Shown piece after piece: positions 941 to 37,394 of a stretch of DNA of 64,000 nucleotides (position 1 is the stretch's first letter; the number at the start of each line of letters is the position of its first letter). This DNA comes from Minisyncoccia bacterium (GTDB lineage Bacteria > Patescibacteriota > Minisyncoccia > Phycocordibacterales > UBA9973), in the NCBI GenBank assembly GCA_038249055.1, contig JBBRWS010000001.1:78244-142243 (forward strand). The letters run 5' to 3'. The position numbers were made by a program, and so were the translations under genes. Below the pieces are notes generated by a model. That model was given only the letters and a program-made list of their open reading frames with translations. It had not been told where the DNA came from and made no database searches.

Positions 941-1045
941 AAATTATTACAGAATGCTGTATATTTACATTTAGATATGCATTGACATTTCATATTTTTA
1001 TGATATTATTTCAAAAAATGCTATTTAAAAACCAATACATAAAGT

Positions 1046-1861
1046 ATGAATATAAAAGGAACAGGAAACAAGATTTATGCTACTGTAAGACAGCTTGCAT
1101 CAAATCCAAACTTTAATCTCTATGAATGTTTGGAAGGAGAACAGACCTATTTTCTTAAAATTGCCAAAAGCAAAGCTGAAAATGGGACTCTTGAAAAAGA
1201 GGAGTATATCCTAAAAACATTAAAAGAGGTTTCGGACAATGTTGAGATTGAATACGCAAAGAAAAGAACAAGACCGGATTCAGTATTGAACAACCACTTT
1301 TTTTTCCCAGAGATTGTTGATTCATTTATTTGTAAGGAACAGCAAAATCGCAGGGTCCTAATTTTGGGACTCACGAGTGTTTCAAAACAAACTAGTGATT
1401 TAGCACCCATCTCTTTTATTACAAAAAGGGATATGGTTAAAATCGACCCAAAAACAAGTGTTTGGATTCTTGGAAAACTTTTGAAAATGCTTGTTTTTAC
1501 TCACGGTCAAAATGTTTTGGTTCGTGATTTAAGTGCAGACAATATTCTTGTAAATAAAGCACAGCATTATGTTTCAGTTTTAAACTGGGGAGATGCTTTG
1601 ATTTTGAACAGGGAGTTGGAGCAAAAAGAATGCTTAATTGAAATTGTTGGTGTCACCAAGGAAGTTGTAAAACTTTTAGGTGGAAATCCTACGACAGGAG
1701 AAATTCCCGAAGATGAACAAATGGAAGATTCTCGATATCAAGATTTATTAAAAAAATTGATTCGAGGAGAATATCATGATGCTTATCTTGCACACTCTGA
1801 TTTTTATGGAATTGTTAGGTCTATATGGCCGAGTAAATTCCATCCTTATACAACAAAGTAA
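1046..1861 (+). CDS. protein-kinase-like fold protein (atypical, possibly pseudokinase)
   Basis: FLKIAK (beta3 Lys-like) and VRDLSADNILV resembling the HRDLKPENIL catalytic loop but with H->V and K->A. Lies in a locally GC-rich block. Confidence 0.5.
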   Translation: MNIKGTGNKIYATVRQLASNPNFNLYECLEGEQTYFLKIAKSKAENGTLEKEEYILKTLKEVSDNVEIEYAKKRTRPDSVLNNHFFFPEIVDSFICKEQQNRRVLILGLTSVSKQTSDLAPISFITKRDMVKIDPKTSVWILGKLLKMLVFTHGQNVLVRDLSADNILVNKAQHYVSVLNWGDALILNRELEQKECLIEIVGVTKEVVKLLGGNPTTGEIPEDEQMEDSRYQDLLKKLIRGEYHDAYLAHSDFYGIVRSIWPSKFHPYTTK

Positions 1862-1895
1862 ATTTTTTATTTTTTCACAATTAAAATCATTTAAA

Positions 1896-2996
1896 ATGAA
1901 CGACAAAGATGTCTTATCAGACAAGGTTTACAAAGACTTTAAAAGTAATGTAAACACTGATCACGTAACCTCAAAGGCGCAGGAACGTCACGAAAAAGGC
2001 TTAGGCCTTGATCCTCTGGTGGATCCAGCAAGTAATGGCGTCATTAGACGCTCTCTCAACCGCATGGAACCCGAAGGTTTATTATTCAGGCTGGTTATGG
2101 GGATTGCAATGCTTGTCGAAGAGCGACTCGATACAACGGGTTCATTCAAGAGAAATGTTGACATAGCTTTCAGAGTTCTTCCAAGAACATATGAACTTTT
2201 AAGAAAGGTTCTTGGGCGCTATGACCTTCAGATGATCAATGCAATTTTTGCTGATGCTTTGGACGATTACATTCTCTGCCGGTCACATGCCGAAATGGGG
2301 ATAAAGATTGCCGAGCAAATGACGCTTATGGTGCCAGAGGGTGGAGGAAAGGGAAATCACGGAGAAGATCCTCAATATGGATTGTTCGGTGGAGCATATC
2401 TGACAAGTGCAGATATTAATCGCTATGGTTTAAAGTCTTACGACTTTACTGTAACAGATGAGCCTTCTCATGAGCCAGTTCTTAAATCGCAGCTTGAAAG
2501 GGTTTTTGGAAAAGAAGTTTTCGATAAGGTTAAGGAAAACGGTTTTGAAATTGACCCAAACAATCTACCTTCTGTAAAACAGGTGATAGACAAGTTGCTC
2601 GAAAGAGCTCATGCGTTCGTGTTTCTTGTAGACATGGACGGTGAAGCCAATGATTACTGGACTACTGTAATTGCTCAAAACAGGATTATTTACCTGGAAG
2701 ACACCAATTATTTACCCGAAGTAAAAGCTGCAATTATCGGCTTAACTGAAGGAGTTTTGACCCTATCTGATCTGGAAGACTTTTTGGTCAACGAGGCAAA
2801 CGTTTCAAAAGACGTTGCCAAGATGATTAAACGCGCCGTAGCCGGAATTCCAATCGGTGCACAAGCTCTACTTGAAAACTTTGACAAAATCCCACTGAAG
2901 GGTGACTTGTTCAAAGAAAAGAGAGATATATGGCCGACAGATGAAATTCCCGAAGAAGATGGTTCTGAAGAACCTCCTAAAACAGAATGGTTGTAA
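1896..2996 (+). CDS. hypothetical protein (GC-rich block)
   Basis: long ORF. Start moved to the ATG at 1896 to avoid overlap with the upstream gene. No motif recognised. Confidence 0.5.
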   Translation: MNDKDVLSDKVYKDFKSNVNTDHVTSKAQERHEKGLGLDPLVDPASNGVIRRSLNRMEPEGLLFRLVMGIAMLVEERLDTTGSFKRNVDIAFRVLPRTYELLRKVLGRYDLQMINAIFADALDDYILCRSHAEMGIKIAEQMTLMVPEGGGKGNHGEDPQYGLFGGAYLTSADINRYGLKSYDFTVTDEPSHEPVLKSQLERVFGKEVFDKVKENGFEIDPNNLPSVKQVIDKLLERAHAFVFLVDMDGEANDYWTTVIAQNRIIYLEDTNYLPEVKAAIIGLTEGVLTLSDLEDFLVNEANVSKDVAKMIKRAVAGIPIGAQALLENFDKIPLKGDLFKEKRDIWPTDEIPEEDGSEEPPKTEWL

Positions 2997-3003
2997 AACA
3001 TTG

Positions 3004-3038
3004 ATGAGGTGACCTATAAATTATTTAGGTCACCTCAT
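3004..3038. terminator. perfect 12-bp stem-loop between genes (attenuator or terminator-like)
   Basis: ATGAGGTGACCT-loop-AGGTCACCTCAT. Confidence 0.4.
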
Positions 3039-3054
3039 TTAAAAAACTTTACGA

Positions 3055-4458
3055 ATGAAAGAAAAGAAAATCTTTGTGATAGTTGATGTTGGCTTTGGTG
3101 ATAATGTAAAAGGTGGAACAGCACATAAAGTAGGTGTTGTTAAGAAAGCCCATACATTTATCAAAGTCGGTGGGTGCCAATGTAGCCACGGTGTTTTTAC
3201 TTCAGATGGTAAAGAAAATAATTTTCATCATTTTGGATGTGGAACATTTGAAGGCTCAAAAACCTACATTAGCGAGAGAATGGTTATTGAACCATATAGA
3301 TTATTGATTGAAGCAAGTAACTTGCAAGATGAATGGGGAATTCACAACATTTTTGATTATCTAACTATTGATAGAAATTGTCTTTGTGTGACTCCTTTTC
3401 ATACCTTGAGTTCAAGGTTCAGGGAGTTGCTTCGAAAAGATAATCCTAAAGGTATCGTTGGTGTAGGTGTTGGAGAAACACTTCGCGATCAGAAAGATTT
3501 TCCCGATGAAGCAATTTATGCTAAAGATTTAAACAGTCCAAGTCTTAGAAAAAAACTCGAATTAGTAAGAGAAAGAAAGTTTGAAGAATTCAAAAACATA
3601 CTTTCTTATGATTGCAATTTGTTAGATTATTTTCATAAGGCAGATATTGAAAAAGCTTCCGAGTTTATTGATTTATTTCACGACAGTGATTTTATAAATC
3701 GCATCGTTGATGTTTTCAATGAAGTTTACTCAAAAATTACTATTACAGATGAAATTTATTTCAGGAATCTTCTTGAAAAAGATGGAGTCATGGTGATGGA
3801 GAGTTCTCATGGAGTTTTGAATGATAGATTGTACGGTTTCCAACCTCACGTTACTGAATTGCGAATTCTACCTCAGCTCAACATTGAAATGCTAAATAAA
3901 TATGGCTTTTCAGGTGATTTGGTAAAATTAGGAGCTACTCGTGCTTACCAGGTACGACATGGAGCTGGCTCTATTGTTACTTACGATCAAGAGATGACTA
4001 AAAATTTAATTCCAGATGGAAATAAGTTAGACAATCGCTGGCAAGGTAAAGTTCGTGCTGGAGCTCTTGATTTTGTGTCATTACAATACGCTATCGATAT
4101 TTGCGGAGGGCCTGAATTTTTTGATGGGATTTCTGTTAGTTGGCTTGATCAAATAGAACTTTTGAAAAAATGGGACATTTGTGATAGTTACAATGGTAAC
4201 AATGATTTAGATTTTTTCTTGCCAGATGGAAAGATAAAAGTTTATAAGCCAGTAGATGACCAAGCTTTGGTCGAGCATCAAAAGTTGCTAACCATGCAAT
4301 TAGACAGATGCACTCCAAATCTAAAATCCTATGACATCAAAGGGATGTCGAGAGAATTGTTCCTACGTTTATGTTCATCTGTGTTTGAAGAAAAACTGAA
4401 AGTCCCAGTAAAAATGGCGAGTTTTGGTAAGTCCGAAAACGACAGAATACTTATGTAA
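3055..4458 (+). CDS. adenylosuccinate synthetase (PurA)-like protein, highly divergent paralogue
   Basis: collinear with PurA: GDNVKGG vs GDEGKGK, GGCQCSH vs GGHNAGH, GIVGVGVGETLRD vs IGTTGRGIGPAYED, VMVMESSHGVLND vs FVMFEGAQGTLLD, YQVRHGAGS vs YSTRVGAGP. Asp13 and His41 equivalents are kept. The P-loop lysine, Gln224 and the Arg cluster are altered. Confidence 0.6.
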   Translation: MKEKKIFVIVDVGFGDNVKGGTAHKVGVVKKAHTFIKVGGCQCSHGVFTSDGKENNFHHFGCGTFEGSKTYISERMVIEPYRLLIEASNLQDEWGIHNIFDYLTIDRNCLCVTPFHTLSSRFRELLRKDNPKGIVGVGVGETLRDQKDFPDEAIYAKDLNSPSLRKKLELVRERKFEEFKNILSYDCNLLDYFHKADIEKASEFIDLFHDSDFINRIVDVFNEVYSKITITDEIYFRNLLEKDGVMVMESSHGVLNDRLYGFQPHVTELRILPQLNIEMLNKYGFSGDLVKLGATRAYQVRHGAGSIVTYDQEMTKNLIPDGNKLDNRWQGKVRAGALDFVSLQYAIDICGGPEFFDGISVSWLDQIELLKKWDICDSYNGNNDLDFFLPDGKIKVYKPVDDQALVEHQKLLTMQLDRCTPNLKSYDIKGMSRELFLRLCSSVFEEKLKVPVKMASFGKSENDRILM

Positions 4459-4470
4459 ATTGATTAAAAA

Positions 4471-4500
4471 GGTGGAGCTTAGGCTTCACCTTTTTTTTAT
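4471..4500 (+). terminator. rho-independent terminator
   Basis: GGTGGAGC...GCTTCACC hairpin followed by a T-run. Confidence 0.55.
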
Positions 4501-4660
4501 TTTTATCTAAAATCTACCCCTTGACAAAACGGCAGATGTTATATAATATATGCACTAAGATTGAAAGAATTAAGTTCTTCTAAAGTAAATAATTTAAAAA
4601 ACGAAATTACAATAAAAAATTTTGATTTAAACCATTTTTTCTAACTTAAAAAACAAAAAG

Positions 4661-5767
4661 ATGAATGAAGAATTGAAAGCCCTATTGATTGGGTTAGGTC
4701 TTAATGAAGACCAAATTCAGAACCTTGCCAACGAAGGTGTTGTGACCATTGAAGACTTAAAATTGTTTTCAGAGCAGGATATCAAAGAAAAAACTGGAGC
4801 CGGACTTGTTACTGTGAGAAAAATTGTAGCAACTTTGTTTCCAAAGATTGAAAATCCTGTTTCTACCACAGCAATGTCGTTTAGCGCAGATGTTTTGCCG
4901 GAAATACCATCAGAAGAATCATGGCTCAGCGCTTTACGTGCCGGCGGAGTCCTTAAGGTAGAACAATCAACTGTGATTTCTGCAATCAGAGCGGCTCTTG
5001 CCGATAAGGTTGGTCTCTATGATCTTCCTTCAAAAATTGTGAAGGCCATGGAAACTTTCGCTGATGCTAATGCAGAACCGGTTCCTGCAAAAGAATTTTT
5101 TGCAATCAGAAAGCAACTTGTTAGAAAAAGCTATGCTGACATCTTTGAAGCCATTGATGGTCTCGACGGGAGTTTTGTTACTGATGCCAGGAAAAATGCT
5201 TTCCTTAAAAAAGTTGATGAACTTTTGTGGCCTGCGATTGTGTCATTCTATGCTCAGCTTAAAGCTTGGGTTGATGCATGGCAACAAGGAGCTTCTAACC
5301 CGGGAACGATGATGAACATCATGGCTACTGTTATGGCTGGTGGTAAAGTGCCTGCAGGAATGATCTCTGCTCCTCCTGAAACTGGAACACTTCGTGATGA
5401 GGCCGACGCCTTGAACGATGGTATAAACAAAGTTTTTTCTGGAGTAGGTGCCCAGATTGCAGCAGCTTTGGCATATGAAGCATCAAGTATTAAAAAGATG
5501 CTTGAAAATACCCAGCTGCCATCAATGATTGGGGTTGCTAACCGCGAACAAATGTTGAGAACTCTTAAAGCAGATGTTCCCGCTACGTATCCGCGTTTGG
5601 AAACAAACCTCTCTAAATTCGTACTTGGAGTATTGAAAGTAAAAGACATCGCCGATGGTGATGAAGCACTTCAATACTTTACCTCACTTCACATGCTCGG
5701 GGCACAAATTCCCTGGGATAAGCTTGGCAAAGGTAATGCCTCTTTAAACATGGGAAGGCAGTTGTAA
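4661..5767 (+). CDS. hypothetical protein (GC-rich block)
   Basis: 368-aa ORF with coding-like composition, no motif recognised. Confidence 0.55.
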   Translation: MNEELKALLIGLGLNEDQIQNLANEGVVTIEDLKLFSEQDIKEKTGAGLVTVRKIVATLFPKIENPVSTTAMSFSADVLPEIPSEESWLSALRAGGVLKVEQSTVISAIRAALADKVGLYDLPSKIVKAMETFADANAEPVPAKEFFAIRKQLVRKSYADIFEAIDGLDGSFVTDARKNAFLKKVDELLWPAIVSFYAQLKAWVDAWQQGASNPGTMMNIMATVMAGGKVPAGMISAPPETGTLRDEADALNDGINKVFSGVGAQIAAALAYEASSIKKMLENTQLPSMIGVANREQMLRTLKADVPATYPRLETNLSKFVLGVLKVKDIADGDEALQYFTSLHMLGAQIPWDKLGKGNASLNMGRQL

Positions 5768-5791
5768 TCGTTCTTTTAAACAAAAAACAAA

Positions 5792-5826
5792 AAGACTCAC
5801 CATTTTTACGGTGGGTCTTTTTATTT
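5792..5826. terminator. bidirectional terminator between convergent genes
   Basis: AGACTCACC...GGTGGGTCT hairpin flanked by A-run and T-run. Confidence 0.55.
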
Positions 5827-7785
5827 TTCAAGTTGAGGTAAAAATACTTTTGTGATAAATAACTTTGTTGCTAGTCTTCGGTATCCTGAATCCCAGAACA
5901 TACTATTCCCATCAATATCTTTAGAGTTTTTAGTTTTAATTCCTCCTTGTTCCGCATTTAAACGCGCATATCCTTTGTGAAGTAATCTGTATTGGAGAGT
6001 ATCTCTCTCGAGTTCTTTCATCCATATTCTGCGAGCATCTATGTCTGCTATCTTTTTATCTTTAGAATATAAAAATCCTGGAAGTAATTTTTCATATAGT
6101 TCTTTTATTGCTTCTTTTTTACCACACCATGCACCTTCTAGTAGTACGCTTATTGTTGCACTGCTTGCTTGTTTGTCATCGCTATCTTCTAAATCTTGAA
6201 TCTGTAGTTCACCCCCTTCATTTTTTAGCCAAAATTCAAGAGCTTTACCGTTTATTTTTTTTTCTGTAAATGTTTCATTTAGAAGTTTTCTAATATTTGT
6301 TTTTTCATCGTTAGAAACATTTGGTTTAACAAAAATAGCGATATCAGTGTCTGAATTTTTTGTTCCATAACCTTTTATTTTTGAACCATACACTATTGAA
6401 ATAGGGTATATATACTTACTAAGTTCAGTATTATTTTCAATAGATTCGGTTATTTTTGAAATATAGTTTATTTCTTCAATTGTTTCTTGTTTATTATTTG
6501 AAAAAAATGGAGTATCAATTTTTTGTATTTGGATATTATTTTTATCTATATATTTATCGTCTATAATACCAACAGATGCAAATCTTGACCATGTGCCAAT
6601 AAGAGCATCTTCTACTTCTGGTGTACTTTCGTTTTGTAAACTTTGCAATATTGGTTCAAATTTCTCTAATGATTTCTGAGATTCTTCTATATTTGTAGTT
6701 GCCTTATTTTCAATATACTTACGTATACCATCTATTACGATTTGTTTAGATATAGATATTTCGTTTGCTTCCATCCATTTTTGGATATCGTTCAAAGATA
6801 GAGATTCGTTTTCTATGCCCTTAAATAAATTATCGGAATATTTATTTATTAGTTTTTTTAAATTTTCTTGTTTAATCCAAGCCGCTCTTTCTTTTGTAAA
6901 ATTAGAAAATTCTTCCTGTTTGCCATCTGATAGGTTTAAGTCTTTTTCAATTTCATCGTTTATTCCACTTAGCCAATTTTTATCATAATTTTTTTCATCT
7001 ACATTCTCATTATTTATTTTTCCTTCACCAGCTTTTATGATTGGATACATATTTCTAATTAATATTTCTTTTGAATTTAAAATCAATTCAAAATCATTTT
7101 CTGAAATCAAACCCATATCATTTAAGACGGGGAGGGTGTCAGCAATACTATTTTTTAAAACATTGTCGTCACTATCTTCCATTATTTTAATTACTTCAGA
7201 AAAAGGTAGTAGATTCTTCTTCACAATAATCGGTATAAGGTGAGCAGCCTTGTTTACTTTTTCGTGTGGTCCATTTCTTAGCTCTGGTTCAAGTAGGTCA
7301 CCATCTATAAAATTTGCACGAAAATCATTAACAGAAAGAAGTTCTTTCCATTTTTCCATATAAGTAGTAGAGAAATTGTTTATTGATTGTGAGAGTTCTT
7401 TATTTTCAGTTTCAATATCTTTTTGTGGTAAAAGTTCAAAAGGGAAGTATAATACCATTCTATTATTGTAAGGGTCACTTTCGAGTAGCTCTGAAAGCTT
7501 GTTGTACATATCTGTAGCTTTTTCTATAGGTAACAGTTTTTTCTCTAGTATCTCTTCTATCTCCATAGTATATGGAATAGAGGAAAGTGAATCAAAATGA
7601 TTTGATAAATTTTGTCTTAATTGAGCTTGTTCTATTAGTTCTTTGTTGTTATTGATTTCATTAGGCCAAAGAGAATCTTTTTGTCCTGGATATAGTAATG
7701 ATTCTCCTGCTGGAGCTACAATTACATTTTTGGATTCTATAGTTTCAATCTTTATTTGAGGTGGTTTTTGGTCAGGTTTAAACAT
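5821..7785 (-). CDS. nucleotidyltransferase-domain protein (Pol-beta superfamily) with ~450-aa N-terminal region of unknown function
   Basis: GS-x10-DxD motif (YGSKIKGYGTKNSDTDIAIF) in the C-terminal third. Confidence 0.5.
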   Translation of the reverse strand: MFKPDQKPPQIKIETIESKNVIVAPAGESLLYPGQKDSLWPNEINNNKELIEQAQLRQNLSNHFDSLSSIPYTMEIEEILEKKLLPIEKATDMYNKLSELLESDPYNNRMVLYFPFELLPQKDIETENKELSQSINNFSTTYMEKWKELLSVNDFRANFIDGDLLEPELRNGPHEKVNKAAHLIPIIVKKNLLPFSEVIKIMEDSDDNVLKNSIADTLPVLNDMGLISENDFELILNSKEILIRNMYPIIKAGEGKINNENVDEKNYDKNWLSGINDEIEKDLNLSDGKQEEFSNFTKERAAWIKQENLKKLINKYSDNLFKGIENESLSLNDIQKWMEANEISISKQIVIDGIRKYIENKATTNIEESQKSLEKFEPILQSLQNESTPEVEDALIGTWSRFASVGIIDDKYIDKNNIQIQKIDTPFFSNNKQETIEEINYISKITESIENNTELSKYIYPISIVYGSKIKGYGTKNSDTDIAIFVKPNVSNDEKTNIRKLLNETFTEKKINGKALEFWLKNEGGELQIQDLEDSDDKQASSATISVLLEGAWCGKKEAIKELYEKLLPGFLYSKDKKIADIDARRIWMKELERDTLQYRLLHKGYARLNAEQGGIKTKNSKDIDGNSMFWDSGYRRLATKLFITKVFLPQLEK

Positions 7786-15143: not shown

Positions 15144-16454
15144 ATGAAAAAGTTAAGTTTAATTTTAGTAGTTTGTATCAGCATGCTTATAGTAAGCTGT
15201 GCTACAATTCGTGAACCTATCCCTGTTAACAAAAAAGTAACTTTGACTCAGGCAGAAATCCAAAGTTTGGAACAAACAGAAGACAATGCCACAGAGGTAA
15301 AGTATCTTTCGATAACAGAAGAACAAAAGGGTACCGCAACGCATCCTCTTGTAAGTAATGTATTTGTTGAGACCGACATTCGTGCCGTCTTGATGGATAT
15401 ATCTACTCAGTCAGGTGTTAATATAATTCCTGATAATACAGTTGAAGGCTCAGTATCACTTACTCTTAACAATGTATCTCTTGAAAAAGCATTCGATATG
15501 ATTTTGTATCCTGGTGGATACAAATATCGTTATGTACAAGATGGTAATTATTACATTGTGGGTAAATCACTTCCGGAGAATAGTAGTTTTGACGCATTAA
15601 CTGTTACAAAGGTGATTAAAACAAACAGAGGTGCTGAAAAGGTACTTTCTCAGTTATCTTCATTTTTTCAGTCGTTCGTTAAAGCTGATGGTCAGACTAT
15701 CACAATCACTGCAACTCCCGATATGATAAATCGTATTGAGAGAGATATCGCATTAATCGACAAGTCAAAAAGATTGATTGAAATATCGGCACAGTTTGTG
15801 ATGGTAGAGTGGAGTAAAGGTGTAAACCTTGGAGTACAATGGAGCGACATTAATTTGAGTGCCATTGGTATTGCAGACATTATAAAAGGTGGAGCGACCG
15901 CTATGTCTTCAAATCTTACTTCAAGTCTTAGTGCCTTTTTATCTTCAAATGGATACGACACTAAAATCAAAACAATCGCTGAGCCCAGGATTGTCGTAGA
16001 AGATGGTGAAAAAGCAGAACTGAACATTACCGAAGAGCATTTATTTTTAATACTCTCTGGTGGAGGTGCTGCTTATAACTATTTTACAACGAAGGAAGTA
16101 TCTGTAGGTATTAAACTGAAAGTACAACCCTTCGTTACTCGTGATGGTCAGGTTCGTCTAGCTATTAATCCCGAAGTTGCTGATATTATCGGCGAAAGGG
16201 AATTCAAGTCAAATGGTGGACCTAGTCAGAAGTTGCCTATAATTGCTCGTCGCTCTACTCAGACTACATTAAAAGTTCAGAATGGAGAGACAATAGCGAT
16301 AGGAGGTCTGATAACAAAAATGGATCAAAATAAGAAGAGTGGAATTCCATTCTTTCGCAAGATTCCATTAGTTGGTTTTGTTTTTGGAAGCCAAAATAAG
16401 GCAGCCAAAGAAACTGAATTGGTAATTTTTATCACTTCCAGGGTAATTGGTTAA
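15144..16454 (+). CDS. secretin (PilQ/GspD family) lipoprotein
   Basis: C-terminal secretin-like signature ETIAIGGLITKMDQNKKSGIPFFRKIPLVGFVFG...ELVIFITSRVI; N-terminal lipobox LIVSC. Confidence 0.6.
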   Translation: MKKLSLILVVCISMLIVSCATIREPIPVNKKVTLTQAEIQSLEQTEDNATEVKYLSITEEQKGTATHPLVSNVFVETDIRAVLMDISTQSGVNIIPDNTVEGSVSLTLNNVSLEKAFDMILYPGGYKYRYVQDGNYYIVGKSLPENSSFDALTVTKVIKTNRGAEKVLSQLSSFFQSFVKADGQTITITATPDMINRIERDIALIDKSKRLIEISAQFVMVEWSKGVNLGVQWSDINLSAIGIADIIKGGATAMSSNLTSSLSAFLSSNGYDTKIKTIAEPRIVVEDGEKAELNITEEHLFLILSGGGAAYNYFTTKEVSVGIKLKVQPFVTRDGQVRLAINPEVADIIGEREFKSNGGPSQKLPIIARRSTQTTLKVQNGETIAIGGLITKMDQNKKSGIPFFRKIPLVGFVFGSQNKAAKETELVIFITSRVIG

Positions 16455-17127: not shown

Positions 17128-17472
17128 TTACAGAGAGAATGAAAATCTTTTCGATTTACTAATCGTCTGACGCACGTGACGTAGGGAACAGAGACCGCGA
17201 GTACGCTTATCGAACCTTACAGGTTCAGTACACCTTTTCGTTTTGATTAACATCAAAAAACGAAAAGCTTTTCGATTCTCTGACGCAAGCAAAGCAGTTT
17301 GCTTGCTTAGGGTCACAACAAAAAAACCGACATAAGTCGGAATTTTTTGTGAGGGTTCTCGAGATAGAACCAGTTGGTTCATTGCCCAGTAAAGCTTGTT
17401 TTACTAATTTTACTTTAAAAGTTTTAACCTTCTCGTGAGACTATAAAAAGTGACAAAAGTGACAGTACTTAG
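17128..17472 (+). repeat. Family A repeat, copy 2 (two tandem tRNA-fragment-like units plus conserved 3' part)
   Basis: 17258-17472 is about 85% identical to 703-938. Contains TTCGATTCTCTG, a 25-nt perfect hairpin, then TAGGGTCAC, which reads as the tRNA-Glu T-loop/acceptor 3' strand split by an inserted hairpin. Also contains the terminator-like CCGACATAAGTCGG followed by TTTTTT. Confidence 0.7.
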
Positions 17473-22374: not shown

Positions 22375-23658
22375 ATGAGTAAACTCATATGGACTACGGT
22401 CCAAAGAAAGGTTAATGATCTTATCCCTCAAAAGATCAATCCTCGTAAAATATCTGACAAGCAAATGTCAGATATCAAGAAAAGTTTGCAGAAGTATAAT
22501 TTAGTTGAGATTCCTGCTATTGATAAAACAGGAGTTATTTTGGCAGGACACCAAAGGATTAGGGCTTTACAGTTATTAGATCGTGGAGAAGAAATAATTG
22601 ATGTAAGAATTCCAAATAGAAAGCTTACAGAAATAGAATCGAAGCAATATCTAATTGCTTCAAATAAATTAGGTGGTGACTGGGATTATGATCTCCTTAA
22701 ATCTTTTAACATGGAGCTTCTTCAGCTCGCAGGGTTTGAAGATATGGAAATTGCTAAATTCTGGGATGATGATACAGAAGTTAAAAATGATTCTTTCGAT
22801 GTTGAAAAAGAATTAAAGAAAATAAAGGAACCTAAAACAAAATTAGGAGATATTATTATTCTCGGGAAACACAAAATTCTTTGTGGTGATTCAACTAAAC
22901 CAGAAAACTTAAAAAGATTACTAGGAGATGAGAAGGTGTCTATGATTTATAGTGACCCCGTCTACAATCTTGATATAGATTATGATGGTGGAATTGGTGG
23001 AAATAAAGAATACGGAGGTAGTGTAAAAGATTCCAGAACTTTTGAAGAATATAAAACATTTATTCGAGAAAGTTTAGAATCAGCACTTGCTGTATCTAAT
23101 CCGAATACTCACGTTTTCTATTATTGTGATCAAGTCTACATCGGATTAATTCAGGATATATACAGATCGCTTGGTGTATCTAATAAACGAGTGTGCTTGT
23201 GGCTGAAGAATTCACAGAACCCTGTACCTAAAATATTCTGTAATAAAGCATATGAACCTGCTGTCTATGGTATTCGTGGACGACCATACCTTGCAGAATC
23301 AGTAACAAATCTTAATGAAGTATTAAATAAAGAATTTGGAACAGGAAATGAACTTGTAGCACAAGTTGATGATTTTCTTGAGATTTGGACTGCTAAAAGA
23401 CTTTCCGCTAAAGACTATGAACATGCAACTTCCAAACCTATAACTCTCCATGAAAAAGCTATTAAACGTTGCACAAAACCGAATGACATAATTTTAGATA
23501 GTTTCTTGGGTTCAGGTAGCACTCTTCTTGCAGGAGAACAATTGGGTCGAAGAGTATATGGCTTAGAGCTTGAGCCAAAATTTTGTGACTTGATAATAAG
23601 ACGTTACGAATTATTTACTGGTAAAAAAGCTCAGATAGAATCCTATGAAGAAAAATAA
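22375..23658 (+). CDS. ParB-like nuclease domain fused to an N6-adenine/N4-cytosine DNA methyltransferase (beta class)
   Basis: ParB N-terminal domain (HQRIRALQLL). Motif IV SDPVY sits before the FxGxG motif I (ILDSFLGSGSTLLAG), which is the beta-class order. Confidence 0.75.
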   Translation: MSKLIWTTVQRKVNDLIPQKINPRKISDKQMSDIKKSLQKYNLVEIPAIDKTGVILAGHQRIRALQLLDRGEEIIDVRIPNRKLTEIESKQYLIASNKLGGDWDYDLLKSFNMELLQLAGFEDMEIAKFWDDDTEVKNDSFDVEKELKKIKEPKTKLGDIIILGKHKILCGDSTKPENLKRLLGDEKVSMIYSDPVYNLDIDYDGGIGGNKEYGGSVKDSRTFEEYKTFIRESLESALAVSNPNTHVFYYCDQVYIGLIQDIYRSLGVSNKRVCLWLKNSQNPVPKIFCNKAYEPAVYGIRGRPYLAESVTNLNEVLNKEFGTGNELVAQVDDFLEIWTAKRLSAKDYEHATSKPITLHEKAIKRCTKPNDIILDSFLGSGSTLLAGEQLGRRVYGLELEPKFCDLIIRRYELFTGKKAQIESYEEK

Positions 23659-24061
23659 ATCACAAGATCAATTCTTTGAAGAGTTGAGGAAAGTTCCCAT
23701 TGTCCAAGTCGCTTGTGAAAAAACAGGGCTATCTCGCAATAGTGTCTATCGTTGGAAAAAAGAAGATAGTGAATTCTCAAAAAAGATGGACCTGGCGATG
23801 GCTGACGGCGTTGCGTTCGTGAACGACATGAGCGAATCACAATTGCTTACTATGATCAAAGAAAAGAATTGGTCAGCAATTTCTTTTTGGTTGAAACATA
23901 GAAATGATAATTACAAGAGTAAGATAGAAATTACTACAAAAGAAGATTTTGAAGAGCTTACTCCTGAACAAGAAAAAATTGTTAGAGAAGCACTTAAACT
24001 AGGAGCAACTATTACCAATAATCAAAATGAAGATTATGGAAAAGATAAAAATAACTCCTGA
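23645..24061 (+). CDS. phage terminase small subunit-like HTH protein
   Basis: HTH segment VACEKTGLSRNSVYRWKKE; directly upstream of and overlapping the large terminase. Confidence 0.45.
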   Translation: MKKNKSQDQFFEELRKVPIVQVACEKTGLSRNSVYRWKKEDSEFSKKMDLAMADGVAFVNDMSESQLLTMIKEKNWSAISFWLKHRNDNYKSKIEITTKEDFEELTPEQEKIVREALKLGATITNNQNEDYGKDKNNS

Positions 24062-30609: not shown

Positions 30610-32376
30610 ATGAATAAAATTATGAAAAATAAAGAATTTAAAAAAGTAAAACTTAAAATCCATGGTATGCACTGTGCAAGCTGTGAAGTCTTGATAGAAC
30701 GAAAATTCAAAAATGTTTCTGGGGTAGAAAAAGTTAATATTAATCATGCAAGTGGACACGCGGAACTCATATGTTCACAGGAACCAAATCTAAAACAATT
30801 AAATAGTCTAGTTAATGATGATGGTTATCATGTAACTACTTGGGAAGATCGTAATGAAAGTATTCCTGATAATCTTGTTAAAAAAAATAAAGCGATTGAT
30901 TACTTACAGATGGGGTGGATTTTCCTAATAATTGTTTCTTTATATTTTATATTGAAACAATTTGATTTTCTTCCAAGTATTTCTGTTGATGGCAGTATGA
31001 GTTATGGTGTTATATTTGTTATTGGATTAGTAGCGGCTGTTTCTTCGTGTATAGCTGTAGTCGGAGGGTTATTATTAGCACTTGCGGAAAAATATAACGA
31101 AGCACATCCTAATCTTACTGGAGTTCAAAAATTTAAACCACACATATACTTCAACATTGGACGTGTTTTAGGATATACAGTGTTTGGTGCTTTAGTAGGA
31201 GCATTGGGTTCAGTCTTTACACTTTCTCCAAGAGCCAATGGATTCCTTATGGTATTTGTAAGTATCATAATGCTCATGCTTGGATTCCAATTATTAAATC
31301 TGTTTCCACAATTAAGAAGATTTAGTCCAAGAATGCCAAAATGGATTAGTCACAAAATTCATGATTTAAGTGGAAAAGATAATAAAGGTGCCCCAATGAC
31401 GCTGGGTGCCCTAACCTTCTTTCTTCCTTGTGGATTCACTCAAGCATTACAGTTATATGTTTTAGCTAGTGGTGATTGGAAAGTTGGAGCATTAACAATG
31501 CTTGTGTTCTCTTTGGGAACAATGCCAGCATTAGTGTCATTAAGTGCGGTATCTAGTTTTGCAAAAGGTGTATTTCAAAAACACTTCCTTCGGTTTGCAG
31601 GGGTCTTAGTTGTTATGCTTGCGTTGTTCAACATAAATAATGGGATAACTCTTGCTGGATACAATTTTAATCCAGCCGCAATTTTTGCTTCAAAATCAAG
31701 TGGTACAGAAAGTTCCAATATGCCTAAAGCAGAAATAGTGGATGGAAAACAAATTGTCAGAATGAAAGTTAGTGGTTACACTTATACTCCTAATAAATTC
31801 ACAGTTGTTGAGGGTATCCCTGTTGAATGGCAAATCGATGGAGCTTCTGCATCTGGTTGTGGAAAGGTAGTTGTTATGCCATCCTTGGGATTAAGTAAAT
31901 ATTTGTCACCTGAAGGTATTACAACAATAAACTTTACTCCAACACAAACAGGGACAATCCCATTTAACTGTAGTATGGGAATGATGACACGTGGATCTCA
32001 ATTTACGGTAATCCCAAACACTACTGGAATCGTTGGTGCAAAAATAGAAACCCCAGTGGAAACACCAACACCAGCATGTGATCCTGCTGTCTCAAAATGT
32101 CCAGATACTCAAAAACTCTCTATTGAAGTTTCTCAAGAAAAAGGTGTTTACCCTAGATCATTAACTGCTAAAAAAGGGGTACCGATTGAATTAACAATAA
32201 ATAATAAAGTTGCACTTGGTGGCTGTATGTCTATTTGGGTTATACCTAAATACAATATTACTATGCCAATGAAAATTGGTGTTATTAAAAATACTTTTAC
32301 ACCGACAGAAACTGGCGTCTTAAATATTACTTGTAGTATGGGGTCGAAAATGGCTGAAATAATTATTAAGGATTAA
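30610..32376 (+). CDS. fusion protein: metal-binding HMA domain, polytopic permease-like domain, and two C-terminal cupredoxin-like (Cys/Met-rich) domains
   Basis: GMHCASCE (HMA); about 8 TM helices with LPCGFTQ; two repeats ending NCSMGMM and TCSMGSKM, resembling the cupredoxin_1 C...M site. Confidence 0.55.
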   Translation: MNKIMKNKEFKKVKLKIHGMHCASCEVLIERKFKNVSGVEKVNINHASGHAELICSQEPNLKQLNSLVNDDGYHVTTWEDRNESIPDNLVKKNKAIDYLQMGWIFLIIVSLYFILKQFDFLPSISVDGSMSYGVIFVIGLVAAVSSCIAVVGGLLLALAEKYNEAHPNLTGVQKFKPHIYFNIGRVLGYTVFGALVGALGSVFTLSPRANGFLMVFVSIIMLMLGFQLLNLFPQLRRFSPRMPKWISHKIHDLSGKDNKGAPMTLGALTFFLPCGFTQALQLYVLASGDWKVGALTMLVFSLGTMPALVSLSAVSSFAKGVFQKHFLRFAGVLVVMLALFNINNGITLAGYNFNPAAIFASKSSGTESSNMPKAEIVDGKQIVRMKVSGYTYTPNKFTVVEGIPVEWQIDGASASGCGKVVVMPSLGLSKYLSPEGITTINFTPTQTGTIPFNCSMGMMTRGSQFTVIPNTTGIVGAKIETPVETPTPACDPAVSKCPDTQKLSIEVSQEKGVYPRSLTAKKGVPIELTINNKVALGGCMSIWVIPKYNITMPMKIGVIKNTFTPTETGVLNITCSMGSKMAEIIIKD

Positions 32377-32389
32377 ATAAAATAAATAT

Positions 32390-32605
32390 ATGAATAAAAA
32401 TATTGTTTTTACAATAAAAGGCACTCACTGTAACTCTTGCAAAATATTGATTGAAGATGTTTGTAAGGATATTAAAGGAGTTAAATCGTGTTGTGTGGAT
32501 GTTCAAACAGGAAAAACATTATTAGAATATGATAAAAATTTTGACTTTGCTGTTTTTAAAAAAGAGGTCGAGGAATTAGGTCAGTATAAAGTAGAAATTA
32601 ATTAA
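32390..32605 (+). CDS. copZ: copper chaperone CopZ-like (single HMA domain)
   Basis: 71 aa; GTHCNSC metal-binding motif. Confidence 0.7.
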
Positions 32606-32606
32606 T

Positions 32607-35600
32607 ATGAATACAAATAAGTTATCCTTCTTAATAGAAGGAATGCATTGCGGTTCTTGTGAAATAATTATCAAGAATGAGTTGTCTGAATTACTTGGAG
32701 TAAGTGATATTTCTGTTAATTCTAAATTAGGGATAGCCGAGTTAACTCTTGATAGTTCAAAAAATAGCATTGAAGATGTCGTTTCAGCAATAAAACAAGC
32801 TGGATATAATGCCGAACTTCAATCTGAATCAAAAACTGAAGATGATAAAAAGGATGTAACAATCTCAACAAATTATTCGGATAGCAAAGAACCTTTAAAA
32901 ATTAAATTGGAATCAAAAACTTTAGCAGAGGGAAAAGTTTTAGAGGATGATAATGGAAAACATTATTTTGATGGGGTCATTAAAACTGATCGTTCCGCAG
33001 AATTTACAATTCCTGAGAACTCTCCTGAGATTGATAATTTGGTTGGTCAGTTGAGTAAAACAACTACTATCGCTCGATTGTTTGATATCGTATCAGGTGA
33101 AAGTTCTAATAAAGAAATAGTCAAACTTCCTCAATCTCAAAATAAATCCAGTGGAATAATACCTGTTGTGACTGAAAGCAATTCTAATCAAAGAATCAGT
33201 TTGTCTCTTTTTGGTATGCATTGTTCTTCATGTGCAAACATCATTGAACGGTCTTTAAAGAAAGTGCCAGGTGTTAAACAAGCTAATGTTAACTTTGCTG
33301 CAGAAAAAGCAAGTATTGTTTATGATCAATCACAAGCAACAACACAGAATTTAATTGACGCTATAGGCAAGGCTGGCTATAAAGCAGAATTAGTTGATTC
33401 GAAAGATGGAGATTATGAACGCAAAAAACGTGAAAAACAAACTAATTTATTCTTTAAATTATTTTGGTATAGTTTTGCTTTGAGTGTCCCAATGTTGTAC
33501 TTCATGCTACTAGATTTCTTTGCCATACCAGGGAAAACAGCAGTTCTGCCGTATGTTGGTATTATTTCTCTTGTATTAACTATCCCAATTCAATTTATAA
33601 TTGGATCAGGTTTTTATAAAGGAATGTGGTCATCGCTCAAAATGAAAACGTTCAATATGGACAGTTTGATTGCTATTGGTACATCCACAGCTTTCTTTTA
33701 TAGTTTATTTAATTTTGTAAATTACTTTGTAAAAACTGGATCATTAATAGGTCTTAATGGAAAAATTCCAGAGTTATATTTTGAGACAGCAGCATTTTTA
33801 ATCACATTTGTCATTCTTGGAAAATGGTTAGAAATAAGAACAAAGAGTAAAACAGGAGATGCTATTAAAAAATTGATGGGGTTACAAGCTAAAACTGCAC
33901 GTGTAATTAGAAACGGAGTTACCATTGATGTGCCAGTTGAAGATGTAATACATGGTGATATCATTATGGTTCGTCCAGGTGAAAAAATACCTGTAGATGG
34001 AAAAATAACGAAAGGAATATCTGCAATAGATGAATCAATGATTACAGGTGAAAGTCTACCTGTTGAAAAGAAAGTTGGAGATAATGTAATTGGAAGTACA
34101 GTAAACAAAACAGGTAGTTTTGAATTTGAAGCTACTAAGGTTGGAAGTGAAACGGCTTTAGCTCAAATAATCCGATTGATTGAAGATGCTCAAGGTTCAA
34201 AAGCTCCAATTCAAGGATTTTCAGATAGAATATCTGCAGTCTTTGTGCCGATAGTTATTGGTATTGCAATACTAACTTTTGTAGTTTGGTATTTGTTTTT
34301 AGGATCAACACTAGCTTTTGCATTAATGGCATTTACTGCCGTAATTGTAATAGCCTGTCCTTGTGCCTTAGGTTTAGCTACACCAACATCATTGATGGTT
34401 GGTACAGGTAAAGGTGCTGAATACGGTATCTTAATAAAGGGTGGCGAACCATTAGAAGCAGCTTGTCACATAAATACTGTTGTGTTTGATAAAACTGGTA
34501 CTTTAACAAAAGGTAAACCAGAAGTTACAGATATTATTTCTTTTGAAAGTACAGATGAAGATGAAATATTAACAATTTCTGCAAGCCTAGAGAGATTGTC
34601 AGAACATCCTTTAGCAGAAGCAATTTATACTTATGCAAATGAAGAATCAGTTAGCTTAGATGAGGTTAAAGACTTTTCAGCTATTCCAGGGCATGGTGTA
34701 AAAGGTACAATTGATAATACCGAATATTATTTTGGAAATCGTCGTTTGATCATAGATATCCTTGGTCTTTCTATTAGTAAAGTTGATCGCAAGTTAACTA
34801 AATTAGAAGAGCAAGGAAAAACAGCGATGATTCTAGCTACTAAAGAAAAAATATTAGGTGCTGTTGCTGTTGCTGACACTGTGAAGCCTACCTCTTTTGA
34901 GGCTGTAGCTAAATTGAAAAAAATGGGAATCACAGTATATATGATTACTGGTGATAATGAACGAACTGCCAGAGCAATTGCTTCTCAAGTTGGAATTGAA
35001 AATGTTTTAGCTGAAGTATTACCAGAAGACAAAGCAAATGAAGTTAAAAAACTTCAACAAAACAACAATAAAGTTGCGATGGTCGGAGATGGTATCAATG
35101 ATGCCCCTGCTCTTGCACAAGCGAATCTTGGTATAGCCATGGGTTCTGGAACTGATGTAGCTATGGAAACAGGAGGTATTGTGATAATGAAAAATGATTT
35201 AAATGATGTTGTTACTGCATTTCAATTATCAAGAGAAACAATGTGGAAGATTAAACAAAATATGTTTTTTGCATTATTCTATAACATAATTGGAATACCT
35301 ATTGCAGCCCGTATATTTATAGGTTTTGGACTAGTCTTAAAACCTGAATTAGCTGGTCTTGCAATGGCGTTAAGTTCTATTTCAGTAGTTGGTAATTCCT
35401 TATTATTAAAATACTTTAAACCAAATAAGAGAAATTATATATCATTAATTGCTCCGCTTGTGATGGTCCTTGTATTTACATTTGGATTTATAGAATTTGC
35501 TAAATTAAGTTCAGGTATGGAAAATGAAGGACCTAAACCAATGGTATCTATTGAGGGTGCATCAACACTTAATACATTTATCGCAAATGGACAGACCAAG

Positions 35601-36293
35601 ATAAATTTTGCCGAAGGTAATCCTAAATTATTTTTAGGAGCAAATAGTATGCCAGGCATGTTGAAAGCTAATCAAGGTACCTTAGTTTTAGGTGATAACG
35701 AAATTATTATAGGTTACGATGAAGCAATGATGATGATAAAAGAAAACCTAATCAAAGGATCAGGAGACGTTTTGACAAACTTCTTTGGTTTGCCAAGTGT
35801 AAAAATTGTAGGAATTATTGAACCTACTGGAACATTGATTGATAGTTATCATTTCGTAAATAATGCAACATTGGCTAATATGACAAATGGAGCTACTGTT
35901 AAGTATGTCGCAGAAAAAGAAATTATAAAAAGTTTCTACTTTGATGTAGCACCTGTTGCTCCATTAATAGAAGTTACAGATTGGTACGGAGTAAAAACAT
36001 TTATCAAAGATCCAAAAGTGATTGTTGATGAAAGTATCCCAACACCAGAAAAATTAAAGAATAATATTCAAGGATTTAATGAGATATATTTAGGTGATAA
36101 AAAATATTTACCTATCTATATTGGATCTAGTGAAGCAAAAATGATGATAGACGCTAAATTGTTTACAAAAGTTGGTGATACAATTGAGAATTTCTTCGGT
36201 AATAATGTAATGGTCGCAGGAATATTACCAGAAACTAAAACCAGTCTTGATACAATGCATTTTGTAGGACAAGGGTTTGTATTAGTAAAATAA
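32607..36293 (+). CDS. copA: Cu+-exporting P1B-type ATPase (CopA) with two HMA domains and a ~270-aa C-terminal repeat-containing extension
   Basis: GMHCGSCE and GMHCSSCAN; TGES, CPC, DKTGT, GDGIND motifs. After the last canonical TM there is an extra hydrophobic helix plus a 250-aa domain with an internal duplication. Confidence 0.85.
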
Positions 36294-36308
36294 ATTAAAT
36301 ATAAAAAT

Positions 36309-36710
36309 ATGAACAAAAAAATTGTTTTTTCATTATTTGGAGTTGTAATAGTTGGATTATCTATTCTCCTGTTGAAAGGTAGCAATATTGTACCCTCCAT
36401 TAAAGTAAATAATCAGCTTATTAGTAATGATAGTGTTGTTGTGGAGAGTGTAACAGCAGTATCTCCTAGTTGGCTTGTTATACAGACAGAGACTAATGGA
36501 ATACAGGGTCCTGTAATTGGATATACTAAAATCAATAAAGGTGAGAACAAAAATATCAGTGTTAAAATCGATTCAGGTCAAAAAACTCCTAAGCTCTTTG
36601 CTATGATACATGAAGATAATGGTGAAAAAAATAAATTTGATTTCCCTGATAATGATATGCCATTATTTTATAATGGTGAAATGGTTCTCCAATTATTTTC
36701 TATTGAATAA
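36309..36710 (+). CDS. secreted/membrane-anchored hypothetical protein
   Basis: signal-anchor; 133 aa. Confidence 0.4.
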   Translation: MNKKIVFSLFGVVIVGLSILLLKGSNIVPSIKVNNQLISNDSVVVESVTAVSPSWLVIQTETNGIQGPVIGYTKINKGENKNISVKIDSGQKTPKLFAMIHEDNGEKNKFDFPDNDMPLFYNGEMVLQLFSIE

Positions 36711-36761
36711 TAGTTTCAAAGTATTATAATTAATACATTAACAGATTAACACCTAATTAAA

Positions 36762-36983
36762 ATGAAATTATCAAAATTATTACATGTAGCTAGTATTGTT
36801 GTAGGAGTAACTGGGATTATTGTGTTTATAAGTGCAATTATCGGAGGTTCTGATAATGTTGTATTTGGTATAACTAAGTTTGATGCTTTGGCTTGTGCTG
36901 GTGTAATTATTCTTATAGCAATATGGCTTGGAATCGGGACAATTCATCATGTAATACTTGAAAGAAAAGGAGAAATTCTGTAA
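36762..36983 (+). CDS. small membrane protein
   Basis: 73 aa, two TM helices. Confidence 0.35.
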   Translation: MKLSKLLHVASIVVGVTGIIVFISAIIGGSDNVVFGITKFDALACAGVIILIAIWLGIGTIHHVILERKGEIL

Positions 36984-37037
36984 TTTTTAACAAATAAAAT
37001 AGTCGTCATTATTAAGATAATTAAATTATAAAAAATT

Positions 37038-37277
37038 ATGATGTACGGAATATATAATGGGTGGGGTACGGGAAGTATGATGGGCTGGTTTGGTGGTAGT
37101 ATTATGATGGTTTTGTTTTGGGGAGCAATTATTTATTTCATTGTTTGGCTTGTTCATAATAATAAAACAAATGGAGAAAGTGGAAAGAAGTCCATTGATA
37201 TCTTAAAAGAACGATACGCCAAAGGTGAAATTGATAAAAAAGAATTTGAAGAAAAGAAAAAAGATTTAACTTCTTAA
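37038..37277 (+). CDS. SHOCT-domain membrane protein
   Basis: TM helix followed by [23 protein letters not shown] (SHOCT signature). Confidence 0.6.
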
Positions 37278-37394
37278 AAATTGAGATTGCTATATCGTGT
37301 AGTTATCATAGAGAAAACGTGTTAATATTTAATTATATTAACACGTTTTCAATTTAGTCGGATTAAATATTTTTAGATTAAATAATAAAAAAAT

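Follow-up and report, generated by a model that had tools for sequence, protein, structure and literature searches.

Near one end of a 64,000-nucleotide stretch of DNA from a Minisyncoccia bacterium (contig JBBRWS010000001.1; the whole stretch is referred to as the window), four forward-strand genes at positions 1046 to 5767 (g1 to g4) and a reverse-strand gene that follows them (g5) make up the core of a gene module that is conserved among Patescibacteria, has yet to be characterised, and is in part also carried by large phages. The genes encode a predicted pseudokinase (g1), a vWA-domain protein (g2), a protein with the fold of adenylosuccinate synthetase (AdSS) (g3), a SAM-like protein (g4), and a protein with a nucleotidyltransferase domain (g5). 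The module is neither a purine biosynthesis pathway nor a recently acquired island. We give a probability of about 0.5 to the view that its products would constitute a GTP-dependent modification system of several subunits, with a substrate that differs from inosine monophosphate (IMP) plus aspartate.

Conservation of the gene cluster in Patescibacteria

A first-pass annotation, made from the sequence of the window, had described four co-oriented genes in this region, and all four were confirmed as open reading frames (ORFs) on the forward strand. The listed ORF for g2 begins at position 1776; the true start is the ATG at 1896, which yields a product identical to the database protein P0121. The extent given to the block was incomplete, in that g5 (5821–7785, reverse strand), which converges on g4 and lies beyond the proposed limits, is part of the unit.

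Conserved neighbourhoods of homologues had been named in the first-pass annotation as a check on the grouping. With each species represented by a single genome, a scan recovered 172 genomes. Of the best 80 loci, most lie in metagenome-assembled genomes (MAGs) that carry Patescibacteria labels, and some automatic MAG labels name other phyla. The order g1-g2-g3-g4 followed by a reversed g5 recurs in these 80 species-level genomes, which cover many Patescibacteria classes, and such synteny is far beyond chance. With tblastn, the same order was seen over 86 loci, in which g1 was detected in 77, g2 in 85, g3 in 86, g4 in 65, and g5 in 74. A census with family hidden Markov models (HMMs), restricted to the 64 loci with sufficient flanking sequence, placed all five genes together in 56 loci; g4 was missing in seven and g5 in one, so that g1 was present in 64/64 and g5 in 63/64. 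The four genes first grouped in the window thus do co-occur elsewhere. The genes that neighbour the cluster vary from genome to genome and are ordinary housekeeping genes.

Homologues of g3 number in the hundreds at 43–59% identity. Where a source organism is named, they belong to Paceibacteria, Minisyncoccia, Falkowbacteria, Sungbacteria, and other Patescibacteria, and they are labelled "adenylosuccinate synthase" or "adenylosuccinate synthetase". An exhaustive profile search assigned 2292 clusters (50% identity) to the g3 family at E ≤ 1e-30.

At two loci of a Patescibacteria MAG, a gene for a major-vault-protein-like product of 830–847 amino acids with Vault_3 and MVP_shoulder domains adjoins g5 (13044–15536 in L001 and 12816–15359 in L002). 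This neighbour was considered as a conserved partner and rejected, as it was found neither in the other loci nor in the window.

The AdSS-fold protein g3

The product of g3 (3055–4458, forward strand, 467 amino acids) has the AdSS fold and is the equivalog of neither PurA nor PurZ. It matched Pfam PF00709 with E = 1.4e-28, residues 8–403 aligning with profile positions 1–356 of 416, and its COOH-terminal SxGP region also aligned with that of PurA; the collinearity with PurA over the whole length that had been recognised earlier was therefore borne out. In PurA (EC 6.3.4.4), Asp13 acts as the base and His41 as the acid, with 6-phosphoryl-IMP as the intermediate, and the roles assigned to PurA residues here follow the Escherichia coli enzyme.

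Residues for GTP binding and catalysis are retained in g3. The P-loop reads GDNVKGG, compared with the family consensus GDGGKGG, and the equivalents of Lys16, His41, and the guanine-specifying Asp333 (K19, H45, and D365, respectively) are invariant across the g3 family. The equivalent of Asp13 (D16) is nearly invariant, and the SxGP motif is also kept in the family (S456-x-G458). The remaining pockets differ from those of PurA. Gln224 is replaced by a histidine, His252, that is invariant in the family. Among the IMP ligands, Asn38 is replaced by Q42 and Thr129 by V135, and Arg143 is lost, the aligned residue being acidic or neutral; the Thr239 equivalent (T267) is the sole IMP-binding residue tested that is kept. 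The aspartate loop, T300-T301-G-R303-R-R305 (TTGRRRR) in PurA, is replaced by N327-R328-W-Q330-G331-K-V-R334 (NRWQG-KVR), which is conserved in the family, with N327-R328-x-Q330-G331 being invariant. Given that the replacement residues are themselves invariant, the pocket looks re-specified rather than decayed.

This residue mapping agrees with the first-pass annotation, which had reported the GDNVKGG P-loop, the retention of Asp13 and His41, the change of Gln224 to His, and the loss of the IMP-phosphate arginines. Its suggestion of an altered substrate or role also gained support from the kept catalytic and GTP-binding residues, the remodelled IMP and aspartate pockets, and scores below the thresholds of the curated PurA and PurZ models. 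Against the PurA equivalog models NF002223 and TIGR00184, g3 scored 70.6 and 55.3 bits, the cut-offs being 402 and 395.55 bits, and E. coli PurA as a control scored 688 and 697 bits. Against the PurZ model NF038379 (cut-off 300), g3 scored 15.4 bits and the control, PurZ of phiVC8, 397 bits. With an HMM of the Patescibacteria g3 family, the highest score among the proteins compared was that of the mycobacteriophage protein gp262 described below (231 bits), followed by the homologues of Rhizobium phage TM30 (122 bits) and Vibrio phage pv27 (101 bits), E. coli PurA (71 bits), and PurZ (6.5 bits). The curated thresholds, with controls that pass them, and the residue mapping together rule out g3 as a true PurA or PurZ.

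Public annotations would make g3 a genuine, divergent AdSS that forms AMP in purine salvage. We consider this very unlikely. The names given to the homologues by their sources, the full-length collinearity, and the retained GTP and catalytic residues are compatible with it, but the score of g3 is a small fraction of the PurA cut-off, and T300, T301, R303, R305, and Gln224 as well as the IMP 5'-phosphate ligands Asn38, Thr129, and Arg143 are all replaced. In addition, g3 differs from PurA in that its gene is always linked to those of the pseudokinase and the vWA protein, and no adenylosuccinate lyase gene was present in the neighbourhoods displayed. PurZ, the N6-succino-2-amino-2'-deoxyadenylate synthase of diaminopurine phages, provides a precedent, being a phage-carried enzyme of the AdSS superfamily that has been re-specified to another substrate. 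In contrast to PurZ, g3 has neighbours that are not of the datZ or mazZ type but encode the pseudokinase, vWA, SAM, and nucleotidyltransferase proteins, and it falls far below the PurZ cut-off.

Relatives in phages

In mycobacteriophage Fludd (Bixzunavirus), three consecutively numbered genes encode homologues of g1, g2, and g3 in the same order: gp260, annotated as "serine/threonine kinase"; gp261, a "hypothetical protein" of 594 amino acids; and gp262, annotated as "PurA-like adenylosuccinate synthetase". These phage genes are thus already annotated, although not characterised. Among 50,697 phage genomes, relatives of g1 were found only in approximately 203 Bixzunavirus genomes, and these also hold the best relatives of g3. 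The g2-g3 pair is present in phages pv27 and TM30. The cassette of Bixzunavirus (cluster C mycobacteriophages) shares with the bacterial cluster the triad in the same order, a dead kinase fold, with gp260 likewise lacking the catalytic Asp (HGAITPDN), and a replaced aspartate loop; the TTGRRRR loop is lost in all vWA-linked PurA-like homologues, including those of phages.

In the Fludd locus (L004; gp260 at 3100–4170), gp261 (4209–5990) differs from g2 in being split by an insert of approximately 300 amino acids with weak Hint/intein matches. Two IMG/VR contigs classed as viral, L087 (30 kb) and L088 (408 kb), hold the full five-gene cluster, with g5 in the same direction as the other genes in L088. 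Either these contigs come from very large phages that have the entire module, or they are pieces of Patescibacteria genomes wrongly filed under viruses.

Partner proteins

The product of g1 (1046–1861, forward strand, 271 amino acids) has a protein-kinase fold. It matched Pfam Pkinase at 2.5e-5, under the gathering score, and phrog_3043 ("kinase") at 3.7e-10, and its family profile matched CK2alpha in the PDB at 1e-7. Comparison with gp260 by hhalign gave 98.9%, and gp260 itself passes the Pkinase gathering score. In an alignment of 32 orthologues, the position of the HRD Asp is variable (G, N, R, A, D, and others), K or Q occupies the beta3 Lys position, and a Gly-rich loop is absent. The window copy has VRDLSADN in place of the canonical HRDLKPEN, and its DFG Asp is changed to Asn. 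Since the catalytic residues are not conserved, we regard g1 as a pseudokinase at the family level, predicted to be catalytically dead. The kinase-like partner had been called atypical in the first-pass annotation, and the family alignment confirms this; the VRD motif it cited is present, but the catalytic-loop Lys is replaced by Ser, not by Ala.

Two further proteins had been left there without an assignment, and both can now be described. That of g2 (1896–2996, forward strand, 366 amino acids) lies outside any Pfam family, and its vWA alpha/beta fold is recognisable by structure alone; the model superposes on the vWA domains of BchD and NorD. An invariant D80-x-T82-x-S84 motif, together with invariant T171 and D189 located after the expected secondary-structure elements, forms a predicted metal-ion-dependent adhesion site (MIDAS). 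The protein encoded by g4 (4661–5767, forward strand, 368 amino acids) consists of an NH2-terminal SAM-like domain with the five-helix SAM fold and an all-alpha domain of approximately 290 amino acids, for which neither the PDB nor a set of viral structures yielded a convincing match.

The product of g5 (654 amino acids) matches Pfam Polbeta and NTP_transf_2, with a Pol-beta-type nucleotidyltransferase domain at approximately residues 460–510. Polbeta was matched by 27 of 30 orthologues, the window copy scoring 26.1 bits, just below the cut-off of 26.9. Residues G467, S468, D479, and D481 of the GS...DxD motif are invariant. Large NH2- and COOH-terminal regions lie outside the nucleotidyltransferase domain. 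A PDB profile search returned matches to minimal nucleotidyltransferases only, and assignment as a GlnE-like or CCA-adding enzyme was rejected, with hhalign yielding only noise.

Natural fusions of g3 and g5

Two proteins, P0377 (1129 amino acids; L091, 3421–6810) and P0414 (1102 amino acids; L093, 8001–11309), are natural end-to-end fusions of g3 and g5. Their matches to the g5 HMM extend over its full length (E = 6e-145 and 4e-136, respectively). Both follow homologues of g1 and g2 on their contigs, and a homologue of g4 was found in neither locus. The existence of these fusions provides Rosetta-stone evidence that the AdSS-like protein and the nucleotidyltransferase probably act together. 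Another g3 variant, P0393 (700 amino acids), carries a COOH-terminal extension of 230 amino acids that showed no match to g1, the PDB, or Pfam.

Nucleotide composition of the cluster

The four genes had been described in the first-pass annotation as 40–47% GC and, on this basis, as horizontally acquired. The GC range was overstated: it suits g2 (41.9%), g4 (42.7%), and local peaks, but not g1 (34.1%) or g3 (34.9%). The window has a GC content of 31.4%, and the mean for its genes is 31.5 ± 4.6%; values of 42–45.5% are reached solely by 400-nucleotide windows within g2 and g4. At third codon positions, the GC fraction (GC3) is 0.27 for g1, 0.38 for g2, 0.27 for g3, and 0.34 for g4, compared with approximately 0.16–0.23 in most other genes of the window (0.187 for an ATP-synthase fragment).

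The same excess was observed when the cluster was compared in 67 further genomes. The GC content of g1, g2, and g3 exceeded that of the flanks in 95–98% of cases and that of g4 in 84%, loci without a detected g4 being counted in the latter figure. The mean excess over the flanks was 6 percentage points for g1, 10 for g2, 7 for g3, and 13 for g4, with none for g5, and it held across flank GC contents of 29–56%. Third positions showed an excess of 0.10 for g1, 0.16 for g2, 0.065 for g3, and 0.21 for g4, and g4 had the highest GC3 among ORFs of at least 150 amino acids in 28 of 65 loci. The protein distances between genomes, taken pairwise for each of g1 to g5, were intercorrelated (for example, rho = 0.72 for g3-g5 and 0.78 for g1-g3). 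Given that the excess is seen across genomes and at synonymous sites, and that the distances are correlated, the GC excess is a property of a co-inherited cluster throughout the lineage, and not a sign of recent acquisition. One candidate cause is selection on codons in highly expressed genes.

These results overturn the proposal of a recently acquired horizontal island, which we now regard as extremely unlikely. The GC content of 42–43% for g2 and g4 in a window of 31%, the raised GC3, and the presence of relatives in phages would suit such an island. Apart from the recurrence of the excess and the correlated distances, however, the cluster is everywhere syntenic with g5, which itself shows no GC enrichment, and neither an integrase gene nor repeats flank the block.

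Putative transcription signals and other features of the window

The top-scoring promoter-like site of the region, judged by consensus match and thus putative, lies upstream of g1 (982–1009, forward strand) and consists of TTGACA, a 16-nucleotide spacer, and TATTAT with an extended TG (11/12 consensus matches). Immediately 3' of g3 is a terminator-like hairpin with a 13-bp stem followed by a T-run (4466–4495, forward strand), and upstream of g4 is a second promoter-like site with TTGACA, a 17-nucleotide spacer, and TAATAT (4521–4549, forward strand; 10/12 matches). The convergent genes g4 and g5 are separated by a hairpin that is terminator-like on both strands (5789–5822), whose stem is 13 bp on the forward strand and smaller on the reverse strand. 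These consensus scans suggest that g1-g2-g3 form an operon and that g4 is transcribed separately. A search of the block for structured RNA in Rfam gave only noise-level matches.

Upstream of g1, the intergenic stretch 596–925 has a GC content above that of its surroundings. Its portion 596–860 folds far better than shuffled sequences (z = −4.66 on the forward strand and −3.64 on the reverse strand) and has no Rfam match. Positions 744–925 are repeated at 17275–17455 (83.5% over 182 nucleotides) and 732–767 at 17150–17185; the stretch may represent a family of small RNAs or a miniature repeat element. Further upstream, a 170-amino acid hydrophobic ORF (77–589) has a GC content of 16.8% and a GC3 of 9.9%, far under the rest of the window. 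Window features at 15144–16454, 30610–39635, and 22375–24061 include a secretin-family protein, not expected should the organism be a monoderm Patescibacterium, and a copper-handling cluster that comprises a DsbD_2/cupredoxin protein and a pair of HMA-domain P-type ATPases. Adjacent to a 427-amino acid ORF (22375–23658) is an AlpA-like gene, which might, speculatively, mark an integrated element.

Discussion

With the probability of about one half stated at the outset, we favour a multi-subunit modification system, and we infer the chemistry of g3 by analogy with the established mechanism of PurA. The g3 protein would bind GTP and move its gamma-phosphate onto an oxygen of the bound substrate, as PurA does at O6 of IMP. 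Its substrate would not be IMP, and the incoming nucleophile would not be aspartate. It would share a pathway or a complex with the nucleotidyltransferase g5, and the vWA protein g2 and the pseudokinase g1 would have no catalytic part, serving as subunits for recruitment or regulation of the target. What results would be a modification derived from a nucleotide, or else a nucleotide or macromolecule in modified form.

Several observations weigh against this proposal. The fused subfamily has Glu in place of the P-loop Asp and a different replaced loop (NEWLGEFR), so the pocket is not uniform across the wider family. Compared with the bacterial cluster, the phage homologues of g3 retain Gln224, and phages show no relatives of g4 or g5. 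Given the retained Gln224 and the absence of g4 and g5, the phage and Patescibacteria versions may differ in their action. The extra NH2-terminal region of gp260 contains an HPD motif and gives a weak, sub-threshold match to DnaJ (E = 0.027), which points toward a chaperone. The best-known pairs of a P-loop NTPase and a vWA protein are, moreover, machines of the chaperone or chelatase type and not ligases. The searchable literature gives no substrate, product, complex, or phenotype for the module.

The main alternative is an NTPase-vWA machine for chaperoning or assembly, in which g3 would be a GTP-hydrolysing motor or switch and the vWA protein an adaptor, in parallel with MoxR-vWA, CbbQO, NorQD, and BchI/BchD. 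The client would possibly be an abundant SAM protein (g4), a virion, or a cell-surface structure; SAM domains commonly polymerise. We hold this alternative to be doubtful, if deserving of serious attention. It is favoured by the strict pairing of a vWA protein bearing a MIDAS-like motif with a P-loop protein in both bacteria and phages, and by the HPD motif and weak DnaJ match of gp260. MoxR-vWA pairs and the J-domain proteins of large phages have been interpreted as assembly chaperones (PMC7824862). The retention of the substrate-activating Asp13 and His41 equivalents, nearly invariant and invariant, respectively, and the remodelling of the pockets with invariant residues argue against a motor, however, and the DnaJ match is under threshold. 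The fusion to a nucleotidyltransferase suits an enzyme pathway better. To our knowledge, no AdSS-fold protein acts as a switch or motor. No AAA+ gene was found in the cluster, the window, or the 64 loci, so the arrangement is not a MoxR-vWA pair in the strict sense. The likeness to the P-loop NTPase and vWA pairs (MoxR-vWA, CbbQ/CbbO, NorQ/NorD, BchI/BchD, and CobS/CobT) thus lies in the obligate genomic pairing of an NTPase with a MIDAS-vWA protein, whereas g3 has an AdSS (SIMIBI-type) fold rather than an AAA+ fold and keeps its substrate-activating residues, and the pseudokinase and nucleotidyltransferase are extra fixed partners.

Returning to the modification system, we also entertain a bolder form of it, which we rate as unlikely: a two-enzyme system for macromolecule modification, widespread in Patescibacteria and carried by phages, in which g5 would act before g3. 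The nucleotidyltransferase would attach a nucleotide to a protein, such as g4, or to the end of an RNA; in g4, a conserved loop near residues 226–246 would be a candidate position for nucleotidylation. With GTP, g3 would then activate the carbonyl of the attached base and exchange it for an amine other than aspartate, giving a new nucleotide-derived adduct or cross-link, and the vWA protein and pseudokinase would present the target. The lost IMP 5'-phosphate ligands, the lost aspartate loop, and the g3::g5 fusions are compatible with this sequence of events without demonstrating it.

A conflict system appears improbable. By this account, the cluster would be an anti-phage defence system, or a counter-defence or host-takeover cassette of phages, in which a kinase-like protein would be the sensor, the vWA protein the adaptor, and nucleotide-modifying proteins the effectors. 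Conflict systems often contain kinase folds, vWA domains, Pol-beta nucleotidyltransferases, and SAM domains; bacteria and large phages share the module; and one fused copy lies near prophage-like genes. PADLOC gave weak matches of g1 to PD-T4-6 and Stk2 kinases and of g5 to PDC-S09, but these reflect generic folds, g2 had a sub-threshold match only (REase_II, E = 0.0096), and g3 and g4 had none. Defence systems are typically patchy and variable, whereas this cluster has a near-fixed order and composition in very divergent genomes, with varied housekeeping neighbours and co-varying distances, and its kinase is predicted to be dead. With only generic or sub-threshold matches to PADLOC-DB 2.0, a known defence system was rejected. 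Modules that combine vWA and kinase proteins, such as the TerY-kinase-PP2C triad and archaeal ArnA/ArnB with eukaryotic-type protein kinase (ePK) enzymes, differ from the present cluster in that no phosphatase or FHA partner is found here, g1 has no conserved catalytic residues, and the AdSS-like and nucleotidyltransferase partners are unique to g1 to g5.

No description of the module was found in the searchable literature, including work on the gene pairing, on PurA-like proteins in Patescibacteria, and on transposon sequencing (Tn-seq) in Saccharibacteria with its supplements. The AdSS superfamily, re-specified once in PurZ, and the pairing of an NTPase with a vWA protein are known kinds, and the combination of g1 to g5 is undescribed in that literature. 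The annotation "adenylosuccinate synthase" across Patescibacteria is very probably wrong. Given that homologues of g3 bear this name publicly, metabolic reconstructions of Patescibacteria could falsely infer conversion of IMP to AMP. With a g3 family of at least 2292 clusters, the module ranks among the more widely conserved gene clusters without a known function in its lineage, and that lineage accounts for a large share of bacterial diversity. It would represent a second re-specification of the AdSS fold after PurZ, in this instance with a vWA protein, a pseudokinase, and a nucleotidyltransferase as partners. The presence of the g1-g2-g3 core in more than 200 genetically tractable mycobacteriophages opens to experiment a function that would otherwise be confined to bacteria not in culture.

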